NCBI GenBank assembly: GCA_017409405.1 | Contig: JAFQSU010000007.1 | Coordinates: 20,767-84,766, forward strand | DNA: 64,000 nucleotides | Source of the DNA: Oscillospiraceae bacterium | GTDB lineage: Bacteria > Bacillota > Clostridia > Oscillospirales > JAAYXM01 | Direction of reading: 5' to 3' | In this document: in pieces, positions 4,000-20,029 of the stretch | Numbering within the stretch: the first letter of the stretch is position 1 | Layout of the letters: each line of letters opens with the position of its first letter | Program-made: the position numbers and the translations under genes | The notes under the pieces: generated by a model | Databases searched by the model: none | Told to the model about the DNA's origin: nothing | Seen by the model: the letters and a program-made list of their open reading frames with translations, nothing else

Positions 4000-4343
4000 T
4001 CCTGCTCCTCCGAAAGCAACCCCAATCTTGCGGAAAGCTCGAGCAGGTTCTTTTCAATCTCACGAAAAGAAGCCTTTGCGGCACGGACACGAGAAACAAT
4101 GATGATATCATAGCCCGGCAGAAAGCTTTTTTCGTTTATCCGATACGCCTCGCGGATGCGGCGGCGCACGCGATTGCGTACAACGGCCTTGCCGACCTTT
4201 GTACTGACCGTAATACCTATACGGTTTGAGGGTTTTTTGTTTTTCCTCGCATAAAGCGCGAGGACAGGCGAAACAGAGCTTTTGCCCCGTTTATAGATAA
4301 GCCTGAAATCCTTGTTTTTTTTGACAGACACCGTGTTTTTCAT
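3996..4343 (-). CDS. rnpA: ribonuclease P protein component
   Basis: 115 aa basic protein with RNR-type motif ([13 protein letters not shown]). 4-nt overlap with yidD, downstream of rpmH. Confidence 0.93.
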
Positions 4344-4462
4344 AAAATTTCTCCAATAAAAAGAAAAAGCCCGGACGGGAAGAAGCTTCCTGCGGCGTCG
4401 TGAGCTAAATCTTTTTGCGGAGCGGAAACATCTTTTTTCCTTCCGCTCCGTGTTATTCTGAC

Positions 4463-4597
4463 TTAGTGGGTAAGCCTGTTTCTGCCCTTAGCGCGACGTG
4501 CTGATAAAACCTTGCGGCCGTTACGTGTTGCCATTCTCTTACGGAAACCGTGAACCTTAGAGCAATGAAGCTTTTTCGGCTGATAAGTACGTACCAT
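4463..4597 (-). CDS. rpmH: 50S ribosomal protein L34
   Basis: Hand translation of the minus strand gives [49 protein letters not shown] lies 8 nt upstream. Too short for the ORF track, whose 70-aa ORF here is in another frame. Confidence 0.95.
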
Positions 4598-4663
4598 TTC
4601 TTTACACCTCCGATATAAAAATTCATGCGGAAAACCGCACCATTCGATACAGTGTCATCAAAC

Positions 4664-4693
4664 ATTATAAAATAAACAGGTGCAAAATGTCAA
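4664..4693 (-). promoter_or_regulatory. candidate rpmH promoter, divergent from dnaA
   Basis: Minus strand TTGACA, 18-nt spacer, TATAAT. Confidence 0.5.
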
Positions 4694-4775
4694 CAGTTTT
4701 TTTGTTTTTTTATAAAAAAGCAGGATTGAGCCTTAAATTTTTTCTATATATATAAATATATATATGTAAATTCTG

Positions 4776-4804
4776 TTTACAAAAATTCATTTTTCTGCTA
4801 TAAT
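4776..4804 (+). promoter_or_regulatory. candidate dnaA promoter
   Basis: TTTACA (4776-4781), 17-nt spacer, TATAAT (4799-4804). Preceded by a pure A/T tract tatatatataaatatatatat. Confidence 0.6.
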
Positions 4805-4839
4805 CATTACAGTAAAAATATAGTGGGGGAATTTGACTT

Positions 4840-6147
4840 ATGAACAACGCTGCCGATATCTGGAAGAGCGTTTTACGTATTCTCAGAGAACAGTTTGAAA
4901 TGAGTGAAATCACGCTTCAGACGTGGTTTGAAGACATCCGTGCTTCCGAGCTTCGTGACAACATCCTCGTCCTTGTCACTCCTGCGGAATTTAAAAAGAA
5001 TGTCATTCTCACTCATCACACACAAAAAATCAACGATGCTCTTTTTGCTCTGTTTTCCGTTCCGATGAGCTTTGAGCTTTACACAACCGAAGAGTTTGAG
5101 GGCTCTCTTGCGCCGATAATTCCCGACTTTTCAAATTATGAAGAATATTCTTTTGAAAAGTTCATTGTCGGCTCTTCAAACAAGTTTGCCCATGCCGCCG
5201 CAAAGGCCGTTGCCTCCGCTCCCGGCAAAACCTATAATCCGCTTCTCATTCACGGCGGCTCGGGACTTGGCAAAACCCATCTTCTCTACGCCATTGCAGG
5301 CACAATCAAAAAGAACAACCCTAAAGCAAAAATCACTTATATCAAAAGCGAGGATTTCACAAACGAGCTTGTTTCCTCCATCCAGAGCGGCACCTTACCT
5401 CAGTTTCGTGAAAAATACCGAAGCTCAGACATTCTCCTTGTTGACGATATCCAGTTCATAGCCGGCAAGGAAAGCACGCAGGAAGAGTTTTTCCATACCT
5501 TCAATGCCCTTCATGAGGCACACCGTCAGATAGTTCTCACGTCTGACCGTCCGCCCAAGGAAATGGCAAAGCTTGAAGAACGTCTCAAAACCCGTTTTGA
5601 ATGGGGTCTTCTTGCTGATATCGAACCGCCTGATTTTGAAACAAGAATGGCAATCGTCAGCTTAAAGGCACAGCTTATAGGTCTTAACCTTACCACAGAG
5701 CAGAAGGAGCTTATCGCAAATAACGTAACGGCAAATGTCCGTCAGCTTGAGGGCGCCGTACATAAGCTTCTTGCCTACCGTGACCTTCTTCAGGACGTTG
5801 ACGGGCTTCAGGCGGCAGAACGTGCCATACGCGATATTTTCGCCGAAAACCCGTGGATTAACCCGACCCCTGAATTTATTATCAAGGCGGTTGCGAAATA
5901 CTTTGAAATCGACCCCGAAGAAATCATCGGCAAGGACCGCTCTTCAAAAATGGTTGAGCCGAGAAAAATTGCGATGTATATGGTGCGCGACATGACTCAC
6001 GAATCCTATCCCAAGATGGGAAAGGTCTTCAACCGTGACCACGCAACCGTTAAATACTCCGTCGATTCTCTTGAAGAACAGCTCAAGACCGATGCGGTGC
6101 TTCGTGAAAAAATTCAGGACGTTAAAAACTCGGTTCTTACACCGTAG
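4840..6147 (+). CDS. dnaA: chromosomal replication initiator DnaA
   Basis: 435 aa. Walker A GGSGLGKTHL, DDIQF box, C-terminal DNA-binding domain (DHATVKYS). Confidence 0.98.
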   Translation: MNNAADIWKSVLRILREQFEMSEITLQTWFEDIRASELRDNILVLVTPAEFKKNVILTHHTQKINDALFALFSVPMSFELYTTEEFEGSLAPIIPDFSNYEEYSFEKFIVGSSNKFAHAAAKAVASAPGKTYNPLLIHGGSGLGKTHLLYAIAGTIKKNNPKAKITYIKSEDFTNELVSSIQSGTLPQFREKYRSSDILLVDDIQFIAGKESTQEEFFHTFNALHEAHRQIVLTSDRPPKEMAKLEERLKTRFEWGLLADIEPPDFETRMAIVSLKAQLIGLNLTTEQKELIANNVTANVRQLEGAVHKLLAYRDLLQDVDGLQAAERAIRDIFAENPWINPTPEFIIKAVAKYFEIDPEEIIGKDRSSKMVEPRKIAMYMVRDMTHESYPKMGKVFNRDHATVKYSVDSLEEQLKTDAVLREKIQDVKNSVLTP

Positions 6148-15344: not shown

Positions 15345-15779
15345 ATGTACAGCGAAAAAGTTTTAGACCATTTTTCAAATCCGCGCAATGTGGGAGAGCT
15401 TGAGGGTGCAAACGCCGTCGGTCAGGTCGGAAACCCCAAGTGCGGAGATATTATGAAAATGTATATGAAGATAGAAAACGATGTTGTTGTAGACGTCACG
15501 TTTAAGACCTTCGGCTGCGGCGCAGCTGTTGCAACAAGCTCTATGGCAACGGAAATGGTAAAGGGCAAGACCGTAGAAGAAGCTCTGAAGCTTACAAACC
15601 GCGCAGTTGCAGAGGCTCTTGACGGTCTTCCGCCGGAAAAGCTTCACTGCTCCGTTCTTGCAGAAGAAGCAATTCAGTCGGCTATCGCAGATTATTACAA
15701 GCGTCAGGGTAAAGACCCGAAGGACTACGGCATAAACGTCTGTGACGGCAACTGTGAGCATTGCCACGCACATAAATAG
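15345..15779 (+). CDS. nifU: Fe-S cluster assembly scaffold NifU/IscU
   Basis: 144 aa. Conserved Cys ligands (NPKCGD, FGCGAA, LHCS). Confidence 0.94.
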   Translation: MYSEKVLDHFSNPRNVGELEGANAVGQVGNPKCGDIMKMYMKIENDVVVDVTFKTFGCGAAVATSSMATEMVKGKTVEEALKLTNRAVAEALDGLPPEKLHCSVLAEEAIQSAIADYYKRQGKDPKDYGINVCDGNCEHCHAHK

Positions 15780-15792
15780 AAGCATAGAGAAT

Positions 15793-15830
15793 GGGGGACA
15801 CGACAAGAACGTGTCTCCCATAAAATTTGA
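15793..15830 (+). terminator. candidate nifU terminator
   Basis: GGGGGACACG-acaagaa-CGTGTCTCCC stem (1 mismatch) followed by A/T-rich sequence with T-runs. Confidence 0.55.
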
Positions 15831-15848
15831 TATTTTTTAAAAATGGTA

Positions 15849-15877
15849 TTGCTAATGTTCGTGTTTTGGAATATAAT
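15849..15877 (+). promoter_or_regulatory. candidate promoter of the R-M operon
   Basis: TTGCTA (15849-15854), 17-nt spacer, TATAAT (15872-15877). Confidence 0.6.
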
Positions 15878-15900
15878 CATTTCATAAGGAAGTGATTGAA

Positions 15901-16974
15901 ATGTTAGCATATATGACGGCAAACGAGGCAGCTGAAAAATGGAACATATCTCATAGAAGAGTTTTGACTCTTTGCAAAGAAAATCGCATTGCTGATATTG
16001 CTATGCTCGGAAACATGTGGATTATACCAATTGATGCAATAAAACCGGAAGACGCAAGGAGCCTTCGTTATAATAAAGGTGACGAGAAAGCTGTTAAACC
16101 TTTTTTGAAATGGGCTGGAGGAAAAGGGCAACTTATTAAAGAAATTGAAGCTTATTATCCTTTTAAAGACGGAAATATCACAAAATATGCAGAGCCTTTT
16201 GTTGGTGGCGGCGCAGTTTTATTTGACATTCTCAGCAAATATGAATTGAAAGAAGTTTATATAAGCGATATCAATGCTGAGCTTATGAATACTTATTTTA
16301 TTGTTCGCGACAATATAGATGCCTTGATTGAAAAACTACATGAAATGCAAAACAGTTTTATACCGTTAGAAGTAGAAAAGCGGAAAGCATATTATATGCA
16401 AAAGAGAATGCTGTTTAATAAGTTAAAAGAGAACACAAATGAAAAGAGTAATATTGAAAAAGCGGCAACAATGATATTTTTGAACAAAACCTGCTTTAAT
16501 GGTCTTTTTCGAGTAAATAAAAAAGGACTATTCAATGTTCCTATGGGATCTTATAAAAACCCCTTGATTTGCGATGAGAAAAACCTCAGAGCAGTATCGG
16601 AAAAATTACAAAAAATCACAATTGTTTGCGGAGATTACAGGGAGTCAGCAGACTTTATTGACAAAAACACATTTGTATATTTTGATCCACCATACAGACC
16701 GATTACGGAAACCGCAAGTTTTACTGCATATACAGAAAGTTTATTTAAGGATGAAGAACAGATTGAACTTGCGAAATTCGTTGATGAAATGCACAAAAAA
16801 GGAGCAAAAATAGTTGTTAGCAGTTCTGATCCGAAAAATACAAACAAAGAAGATGATTTCTTTGATAATATTTATGCTGCCCATAATATAAAACGCGTTG
16901 AAGCTACAAGAATGATTAACTGTAACAGTAAGGCAAGAGGAAAAATTACGGAATTGCTTATTTCTAATTTTTAA
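15901..16974 (+). CDS. Dam-family DNA (adenine-N6) methyltransferase with N-terminal HTH domain
   Basis: The track ORF starts at GTG 15892; ATG 15901 lies 8 nt after AAGGAAG, and ATG 15913 is also possible. Excisionase-like HTH MTANEAAEKWNISHRRVLTLCKENRI. Dam motifs KWAGGKGQL, EPFVGGGAV, FDPPY. Confidence 0.88.
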   Translation: MLAYMTANEAAEKWNISHRRVLTLCKENRIADIAMLGNMWIIPIDAIKPEDARSLRYNKGDEKAVKPFLKWAGGKGQLIKEIEAYYPFKDGNITKYAEPFVGGGAVLFDILSKYELKEVYISDINAELMNTYFIVRDNIDALIEKLHEMQNSFIPLEVEKRKAYYMQKRMLFNKLKENTNEKSNIEKAATMIFLNKTCFNGLFRVNKKGLFNVPMGSYKNPLICDEKNLRAVSEKLQKITIVCGDYRESADFIDKNTFVYFDPPYRPITETASFTAYTESLFKDEEQIELAKFVDEMHKKGAKIVVSSSDPKNTNKEDDFFDNIYAAHNIKRVEATRMINCNSKARGKITELLISNF

Positions 16975-16987
16975 GGAGAATTGAGTT

Positions 16988-17518
16988 ATGATAAAAAACG
17001 GCAAAGGTGGAGGAAATACCAAAACAGGTCTGGTTTTTGAAGGAAAGACAGATTTATCAACATTTCTTTCTATGCAAAAAGGGTATCAAGTAATCGAAGA
17101 TAAGGTATTTTACCAAGACGAACTGGTCGCAAGGATTTTTAAAAAGCACGACTTTTATAAGAAATTTCTTAAAGAGCTTGAGATAGATTGGACAAAGATT
17201 ATATCAAAGCAATTATTGCCGGACGACAGTATTTTTGTAATAATAAAGAACACATTATATATTATAGAGTGCAAGTTTCAGCAAGTGGCAGGCTCGGTTG
17301 ATGAAAAATTACAAACGTGTGATTTTAAGAAAAAACAGTATCAAAAGTTACTCTCAAAAGCAAATATAGATGTGGAATATATGTATTTGTTAAGTGATTG
17401 GTTTAGAGATGCTCGTTATAAAGACGTATTAGATTATATACATAGTGTCAGATGCCACTATTATTTTGAATATATTCCGCTGTATAAATTTGGATTGCCG
17501 GTTCCGGAAGAAGAATGA
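16988..17518 (+). CDS. putative type II restriction endonuclease, PD-(D/E)xK fold
   Basis: 176 aa, sandwiched between two methyltransferase genes. P78-D79...E94-C-K96 (LLPDDSIFVIIKNTLYIIECK). AAGGAG RBS. Family not recognised. Confidence 0.6.
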   Translation: MIKNGKGGGNTKTGLVFEGKTDLSTFLSMQKGYQVIEDKVFYQDELVARIFKKHDFYKKFLKELEIDWTKIISKQLLPDDSIFVIIKNTLYIIECKFQQVAGSVDEKLQTCDFKKKQYQKLLSKANIDVEYMYLLSDWFRDARYKDVLDYIHSVRCHYYFEYIPLYKFGLPVPEEE

Positions 17519-18264
17519 AAATGAAGAAAATAATTAGATGGGAGCCGGAAAACTTTGAATTGGAAATGACTACACATTGGTCTTTTCCAAAACGAGGAGA
17601 CTGGGCGACACACGATGCCAAATGGCGTGGAAATTGGTCACCTTATATACCGAGGAATATCATTTTGAGATATTCACATGAAGGAGATATGATTCTTGAC
17701 CAATTTGCCGGAGGCGGAACAACCCTTGTCGAAGCAAAGCTTTTAAACAGAGATATAATTGGTGTAGATATAAACGATGTTGCGATAGAACGATGTAAGG
17801 AAAAAACAACATTTGATTATCAGTCGGCGACCGGAAAGGTATACATAAAAAAGGGAGATGCAAGAAAGCTTGACTTTATTCCCAATGAAAGCATTGATCT
17901 TATATGCACACATCCGCCGTACGCAGATATTATCAAGTACAGCGAAGAAATCAATGGAGACTTATCTCAGTTAAAAGTTAAAGAGTTCGTTGAAGAAATG
18001 AAAAAAGTGGCAGCGGAAAGTTATCGCGTCTTAAAAAAGGACAAGTTTTGTGCCATCCTTATGGGAGACACACGGCAAAAAGGGCATATGATACCAATGT
18101 CGTTTGATGTAATGCGTGTTTTCCAAGAAGCCGGATTTAAACTGAAAGAAATTATTATTAAAGAGCAACACAATTGTAAGGCGACGGGATATTGGAAAAC
18201 TAACAGCGTAAAGTACAACTTTTTATTGATAGCGCATGAATATTTGTTCATCTTTAGAAAATAA
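17515..18264 (+). CDS. SAM-dependent DNA methyltransferase (motif I before motif IV; HPPY)
   Basis: 249 aa. 4-nt ATGA overlap with the nuclease gene. LDQFAGGGTTLVEAKLLNRDIIGVDIN (SAM site) at aa 61-87 and CTHPPYAD at aa 131-138. Confidence 0.8.
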   Translation: MKMKKIIRWEPENFELEMTTHWSFPKRGDWATHDAKWRGNWSPYIPRNIILRYSHEGDMILDQFAGGGTTLVEAKLLNRDIIGVDINDVAIERCKEKTTFDYQSATGKVYIKKGDARKLDFIPNESIDLICTHPPYADIIKYSEEINGDLSQLKVKEFVEEMKKVAAESYRVLKKDKFCAILMGDTRQKGHMIPMSFDVMRVFQEAGFKLKEIIIKEQHNCKATGYWKTNSVKYNFLLIAHEYLFIFRK

Positions 18265-18284
18265 TTTTTTACTCAATATTTATG

Positions 18285-18323
18285 AAAAAACCGATAAAAG
18301 TAAATGACTTTTATCGGTTTTTT
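18285..18323. terminator. bidirectional terminator between the R-M operon and the XRE gene
   Basis: AAAAAACCGATAAAAGT-aaatg-ACTTTTATCGGTTTTTT. Confidence 0.85.
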
Positions 18324-18327
18324 CTAT

Positions 18328-20019: not shown

Positions 20020-20029
20020 TAAGAAGATA

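Follow-up and report, generated by a model that had tools for sequence, protein, structure and literature searches.

A strain-variable, origin-proximal island of an Oscillospiraceae genome as a probable GATC restriction–modification cassette with a small PD-(D/E)XK nuclease

The window analysed here is a stretch of 64,000 nucleotides (nt) from an Oscillospiraceae bacterium (GenBank assembly GCA_017409405.1, contig JAFQSU010000007.1, positions 20,767 to 84,766 of the forward strand). Between its nifU gene and a convergent XRE gene lies a small island of three genes, which encode a Dam-like DNA methylase (M1), a small nuclease (R) and a second DNA methylase (M2). This island is best explained, with a probability of about 0.68, as a horizontally acquired Type II restriction–modification (R-M) cassette of the two-methylase GATC kind, functioning by the mechanism proposed below. 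It is most likely a variation on the DpnII/MboI theme, in which the nuclease belongs to a different and small family, the second methylase is permuted, and the Dam-type methylase may regulate its own operon through a putative fused helix-turn-helix (HTH) domain. Systems of this kind are ordinary; the R family is very widespread yet uncharacterised. The features of the island are listed below, with positions in the window.

15779..18315, + strand: inserted island, 2,537 bp, replaced by 22 bp with one terminator hairpin in a conspecific strain
15791..15821, + strand: left boundary hairpin, ATGGGGGACACG / CGTGTCTCCCAT, an inverted repeat with 12-nt arms, 92% complementary
15849..15877, + strand: island promoter TTGCTA-17-TATAAT, the best promoter-like match of the region (10/12)
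15858..15877, + strand: putative operator TTCGTGTTTTGGAATATAAT, palindromic TTC-N8-GAA, overlapping the spacer and the -10 element
15901..16974, + strand: M1, Dam/DpnM-family N6-adenine DNA methyltransferase, 357 aa, FDPPY motif (putative N-terminal HTH at about nt 15910-16041, D12 catalytic domain at about nt 16111-16917)
16988..17518, + strand: R, 176-aa PD-(D/E)XK nuclease, candidate restriction endonuclease (catalytic residues P78-D79 at nt 17219-17224, E94 at 17267-17269, K96 at 17273-17275)
17515..18264, + strand: M2, DNA methyltransferase, 249 aa (motif I FAGGG at aa 64-68, motif IV HPPY at aa 133-136)
18284..18324, no strand assigned: right boundary hairpin, a bidirectional terminator common to the island and the convergent host XRE gene

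The island is accessory and strain-variable, since this site is empty in another strain of the species. The contig of that strain (L089) and several others covering the same locus have been found through an exact-protein look-up of NifU. Its flanks are 97.6-99.2% identical to those of the window, and in BLASTN the homology ends at 15778 and restarts at 18316, which delimits the insert to 15779-18315. In the empty site, 22 nt with a single hairpin separate the nifU stop codon from that of the convergent XRE gene. The insert came with hairpins of its own, which took the place of the resident terminator. The left one folds as RNA at -20.5 kcal/mol (z -5.5 versus shuffled controls) and probably terminates nifU and insulates the island; the right one reaches -22.6 kcal/mol on the + strand and -22.4 on the - strand (z -7.3 to about -7.5). 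A simple terminator scan of the region called neither of them. XRE and degV are host genes; the XRE gene was considered as a controller (C) protein of the island, and this was rejected because the gene is also present at the empty site.

The GC content is 0.32-0.37 within the island versus 0.44-0.52 in the flanks, and no other 2-kb block of the window has a GC content as low as positions 16001-18000. The island shows no sign of an integrase, a transposase or a target-site duplication. At least 15 independent metagenomic contigs carry the three open reading frames (ORFs) intact and in identical form. Elsewhere the surroundings of the cassette are unrelated, as in Elusimicrobia, where it follows ispG. 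The locus is origin-proximal, as deduced from the genes at the start of the window, namely jag/yidC, dnaA (4840-6147), and then dnaN, recF, gyrB and gyrA. The three genes are separated by a 13-nt gap (M1-R, 16975-16987) and a 4-nt ATGA overlap (R-M2, 17515-17518), by which M2 is translationally coupled to R. An earlier note, made from the DNA letters alone, had described an AT-rich, origin-proximal block of three tightly packed co-directional genes between two hairpins, and had proposed a comparison of synteny in related genomes to find empty sites. The ORF coordinates, GC profile, neighbouring genes and hairpin folding all agree with that description, and the conspecific strain supplies the empty site.

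M1 matches PF02086 with an E-value of 2.4e-59 and TIGR00571 with 285 bits (cutoff 115). Its best match in the Protein Data Bank (PDB) is DpnM (2dpm, E 8.5e-51), followed by E. coli Dam. The residues through which E. coli Dam contacts GATC, which we take to be K9, N120, L122, R124, P134 and Y138, are all conserved in M1 in the DpnM/Dam alignment. The start codon is most likely the ATG at 15901, with a ribosome-binding site AAGGAAG 8 nt upstream, and it is also the start chosen by gene callers on identical metagenome contigs; a GTG at 15892 is possible. In contrast to the DpnII and MboI methylases, M1 has at its N-terminus an extra segment of about 65 aa, which resembles HTH_17 (excisionase-like) weakly, at E 3e-4, and gives an HTH_59 match at E 2e-3. 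This extension is found in 33 of 59 Dam homologues.

R belongs to the PD-(D/E)XK nucleases, with a confidently predicted fold. It matches PF20472 (PDDEXK_11) with 34.6 bits (cutoff 23.7), over positions 10-81 only of the 145 of the profile, and 81 of 89 diverse R relatives match this profile as well. The PD...ExK core of R aligns with that of the Pfam family, which carries no functional annotation. Among 89 representatives that are 37-63% identical to R, the residues P78, D79, E94 and K96 each reach at least 90% conservation. An AlphaFold (AF2) model built from the 89-sequence alignment has a pLDDT of 90.9 and a pTM of 0.86, with the motif on strands E80-84 and E89-96. The profile match above cutoff thus places the middle gene in a nuclease family, as the earlier note had supposed, rather than in a non-nuclease one.

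No solved structure is close to R, and no annotation names it a restriction enzyme. Foldseek searches of the PDB with two R models gave nothing at E <= 1e-3. The matches are generic PD-(D/E)XK nucleases (arenavirus endonuclease, BstEII, MunI, XisH), the best restriction enzymes being BstEII (TM 0.45) and MunI (TM 0.41). The R sequence finds only noise in the PDB (S100-A3, E 0.6), no NCBIfam family matches it, and tblastn against phage genomes gave no match. Literature searches on PF20472, and on Ruminococcus bromii with GATC, returned nothing about the R family. Two side observations concern this family. The R model has its best BFVD matches among algal giant viruses, in uncharacterised proteins about 170-215 aa long (Bathycoccus sp. 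RCC716 virus 1 A0A7S6NXM7, E 3.8e-10, 27% identity; G8DDE9; A0A6G6XN47). In addition, the 90%-identity cluster with a 173-aa Capnocytophaga nuclease includes "DNA adenine methylase" proteins of 307-310 aa, the representative being one of them, which is probably a clustering or gene-calling artefact from the adjacent Dam gene.

The relation to DpnII deserves separate consideration, since this enzyme is also listed as PD-(D/E)XK (PMC3424549). R has 176 aa, compared with about 280-290 for the DpnII and MboI endonucleases, and lacks a match to PF04556, the DpnII family; one of the 89 relatives has one (E 1e-3). An hhalign comparison places the catalytic regions of R and DpnII together without significance (E 0.18 with a shallow profile, 0.015 with 89 sequences, probability at most 3%), and in local HMMER comparisons reversed sequences give the same range of E-values. 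As far as these profile comparisons demonstrate, the relationship goes no further than the superfamily, in line with the earlier note, which had set the nuclease apart from the DpnII and MboI enzymes by its much smaller size. A candidate reading of R as a truncated DpnII, based on a by-eye likeness of "LYIIECKFQQVAGSVDEKL" to "IYGIETNFYGSGGSKLNET" in DpnII, has been set aside as undemonstrated.

M2 is matched over its full length by the PADLOC model MTase_II PDLC03376 (483 bits). It matches PF01555 in two pieces in reversed order, and its PDB matches are beta-class N6A/N4C methylases, likewise in reversed order. By its motifs, M2 classifies as an N6/N4-type DNA methylase, circularly permuted with respect to the beta-class DpnA and MboIC because motif I precedes motif IV; in these two enzymes motif IV, DPPY, comes before motif I. 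The HPPY of M2 (nt 17911-17922) is kept in all 32 M2-type homologues, where it is preceded by T or A, and all 32 are located downstream of R. No description of an HPPY methylase motif was found in a literature search. The Pfam, TIGR and PADLOC profile matches together uphold the order methyltransferase-nuclease-methyltransferase first assigned to the three genes.

Genomic neighbourhoods provide comparative evidence on the function of the system. At 90% identity the R family falls into 6,321 clusters, and at 50% it has 877 representatives. With each species represented by one genome, a scan confirmed 485 R relatives, and the neighbouring ORFs of the best 80 of these were called and clustered. 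These 80 are at least 67% identical, though they come from more than 12 phyla (Clostridia, Bacteroidota, Verrucomicrobia, Spirochaetes, Elusimicrobia, Saccharibacteria, Planctomycetes, Mycoplasma, Nitrospirota, Zixibacteria and others). A methylase of the Dam, DpnA or M2 type lies at most 3 kb from R in 77 of the 80 loci, and in each of the other three the contig ends no more than about 230 nt from R. The architectures are distributed as follows, the remaining loci being smaller variants.

Dam(HTH)-R-M2, the type of the window: 19 loci
DpnA-R: 13 loci
Dam(HTH)-R: 9 loci
Dam-R-DpnA: 7 loci

The second methylase is of the DpnA type, similar to DpnA/MboIC, in 24 sister loci. A genuine DpnII endonuclease (PF04556, 372 bits) is found directly beside R, on either side, in 8 of the 80 loci, including that of R. 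bromii ATCC 27255. These 8 loci tie the methylase module to GATC, and by its sequence relationships this module is a GATC module. R mostly appears there as an alternative to DpnII, being the sole nuclease of the cassette in about 70 of the 80 loci and in the window, and the simplest reading is that R would be an analogous restriction endonuclease for GATC. The organisation is also that of the DpnII (dpnM-dpnA-dpnB) and MboI systems, with a first methylase of the Dam/DpnM class and with two methylases and one nuclease in a compact operon, and the M-R-M order of the island matches MboI. The analogy with these systems, drawn at first from gene order, has therefore been strengthened by the linkage of the R family to Dam- and DpnA-like methylases and by its occurrence beside DpnII.

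Some sister cassettes carry extra genes between or after Dam and R, for a DUF4357 protein, a NucS-like/DUF5655 protein and one 287-aa protein (L029, 5105-5980; L060, 5096-5983; L048, 2660-3523), so that the cassette may serve as a landing pad for other defence genes.

A more distant relative lies in Neisseria gonorrhoeae. A search of plasmids by tblastn with R returned two N. gonorrhoeae chromosomes mis-filed as plasmids and nothing else; one of these, NZ_CP119140.1, measures 2.17 Mb and is kept among the plasmids of PLSDB. It carries downstream of drg, at leuS, an R homologue with 51% identity (5001-5535 in the extracted locus, L007) beside a DpnA-like methylase (4303-5004), both frameshifted and unannotated. 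The leuS locus is a known exchange site of Dam and Drg (Dam-replacing) genes (PMC4269198). Like the position of the island, it is a low-GC cassette site, and it is concerned with GATC methylation (PMC4269198). The neisserial locus differs in that the neighbouring gene encodes Drg, a methyl-dependent endonuclease similar to DpnI (PF06044), and in that methylase and small nuclease are disrupted.

The 64-kb window itself is very poor in GATC, with 29 sites observed for 184 expected (observed/expected ratio, O/E, 0.16). Other sites are depleted too, namely GGCC (28 versus 194, O/E 0.14), CTAG (1 versus 28, 0.04) and CCGG (O/E 0.49); the GGCC and CCGG depletion suggests long exposure to HaeIII-like and HpaII/MspI-like restriction.

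A second line of evidence concerns the regulation of the operon. Promoter-like matches are frequent in AT-rich DNA (24 observed versus 11.9 expected), and the promoter which had been proposed for the island gains credit from its conservation: upstream of M1 homologues in unrelated genomes, a near-invariant block extends from the -35 to the -10 element (consensus cTTGCTATTATTCGAGATTTGGAATATAAT), with no conservation of the 5' untranslated region and flanks next to it. A palindrome, TTC-N8-GAATATAAT, overlaps this promoter. Of the 33 loci whose Dam bears the N-terminal HTH, 32 have the motif TTC-N8-GAA[TG]ATAAT upstream of M1, at a distance of 40-59 nt; none of the 26 loci with an HTH-less Dam or of the 21 Dam-less loci has it (0/47), and there is one stray match in 785 kb. 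Because the putative operator covaries with the HTH (32/33 versus 0/47), the HTH of M1 would be expected to bind it and to repress the operon promoter. Island regulation thus appears to come from the putative HTH fused to M1, in an SsoII-like autoregulation suggested by this covariation. M.SsoII and M.Ecl18kI control their own systems via an N-terminal DNA-binding domain of the methylase (PMC2760811, PMC3978073). The island resembles them in the putative HTH region of about 65 aa at the methylase N-terminus, here that of M1, in a putative palindromic operator in the promoter region, and in the lack of a separate C protein. In contrast, the SsoII and Ecl18kI systems have C5-cytosine methylases and divergent R and M genes, whereas the island methylase is of the Dam class and heads a unidirectional M-R-M operon, with a putative operator overlapping the -10 element.

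The following mechanism can be proposed. All three genes would be transcribed from the single promoter. M1 would methylate the adenine of GATC on double-stranded DNA, and R, presumably as a homodimer, would cut unmethylated GATC of incoming DNA. M2, which occupies the position of DpnA/MboIC, would provide a second protective methylation, possibly on single-stranded or hemimethylated DNA. Upon entry into a naive cell the operon would be open, with the methylase gene translated first, and it would then be throttled as M1 accumulates, because the N-terminal HTH of M1 would bind the palindromic operator over the -10 element. A wider proposal, to which we give even odds, is that R founds a structurally distinct family of miniature Type IIP GATC endonucleases, which have repeatedly displaced DpnII in Dam/DpnA cassettes and are among the most widespread and conserved families of restriction enzymes. 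More boldly, the coexistence of R and DpnII may reflect a non-redundant activity of R, for example on hemimethylated or single-stranded GATC DNA.

Several points weigh against the interpretation of the island as a GATC R-M cassette. The database names of the R family are all "hypothetical" or "PD-(D/E)XK nuclease superfamily protein", even in cultured Capnocytophaga, Riemerella, Treponema zioleckii and R. bromii. No PADLOC restriction-endonuclease model matches R, which gives there a weak CARF_PDDEXK match (E 0.02). The catalytic motif of M2 is unusual, HPPY in place of the usual D/N/S-PP-Y, and the HTH_17 score of M1, 21.4 bits, is below the Pfam gathering score of 27. GATC depletion of the host reflects a pressure at the level of the lineage and not the specificity of a strain-variable island. 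Lastly, with an identity of 70% or more between phyla, R is conserved to a degree unusual among restriction enzymes, and R and DpnII coexist intact in 8 loci, so that R could be an accessory nuclease.

These last two points, together with the occurrence of both gene orders of R and DpnII and the frequent linkage of R to DpnA-type methylases, underlie the most serious alternative. It retains the GATC methylation module and makes of R an accessory nuclease instead of a classical enzyme of double-strand cleavage, for example a nickase or a nuclease specific for hemimethylated or single-stranded GATC, which would complement DpnII-type restriction or act in a MutH-like, Dam-directed manner. DpnA-type methylases are active on single-stranded DNA. 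We consider this alternative unlikely, given that R is the only nuclease in most of the cassettes examined, as in the window, and that the strong avoidance of GATC by the host fits real restriction pressure. As regards the MutH-like version, neither R nor its 89 relatives match MutH (PF02976) in Pfam, MutH is absent from the top 50 Foldseek matches, and a gene dependent on MutS/MutL would not be expected to move freely among more than 12 phyla.

Somewhat less probable still is a working R-M system directed at a site other than plain GATC, be it longer or different, with a diverged Dam-family methylase and with M2 modifying a second strand or site. The Dam/D12 class does include methylases with non-GATC sites, such as those of EcoRV, FokI and NlaIII, asymmetric type IIS sites typically go with two different methylases, and the specificity of M2 is not fixed by its matches. 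However, the best relatives of M1 are GATC enzymes and its GATC-contact residues are kept, the same M1/M2/R module occurs with the DpnII endonuclease and with DpnA/MboIC-like methylases, and R is a small single-domain protein, unlike type IIS enzymes. A decaying or domesticated relic, with orphan methylases serving epigenetic regulation and an inactive nuclease, is very improbable: orphan Dam methylases are common, the R copy of N. gonorrhoeae is frameshifted along with its methylase, and that species leaves GATC without methylation (bioRxiv 10.1101/2022.11.07.515285), but the island ORFs are intact and identical across the metagenomic contigs, the catalytic residues of R and the putative autoregulatory operator are conserved, and the genes are tightly coupled.

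Should R be confirmed as a GATC endonuclease, thousands of genes that now go by "PD-(D/E)XK superfamily" or "hypothetical" could receive a restriction-enzyme annotation. The avoidance of GATC and the G6mATC methylomes of gut Clostridia and of many further phyla would become easier to explain, and R would be a new and compact cutter of GATC with a novel variant of the fold. Few systems have a methylase that is itself the transcriptional regulator, and the island would add to them one of the Dam class. In practical terms, it is predicted to be a barrier to the transformation of these Oscillospiraceae with DNA lacking Dam methylation. If the prediction fails, it is still an ordinary accessory R-M island.

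Two other segments of the window can be mentioned. Positions 1-2100, beside jag/yidC, form the second-lowest GC block (0.373) and may be another accessory segment; they contain an ORF of 382 aa (11-1159, + strand) and a multi-pass membrane ORF of 281 aa (1258-2103, - strand). Between degV and a HAD hydrolase gene, two copies of a 33-nt palindromic element (AGCAACACCCGATGC...GCATCGGGTGTTG), at 20029-20076 and 20303-20348, make inverted arms of 46 nt, 91% complementary, on both sides of a 226-nt segment, which gives the whole a REP- or MITE-like look. The same copies also yield spurious ORFs with the common peptide "NTRCIRHRVLL".

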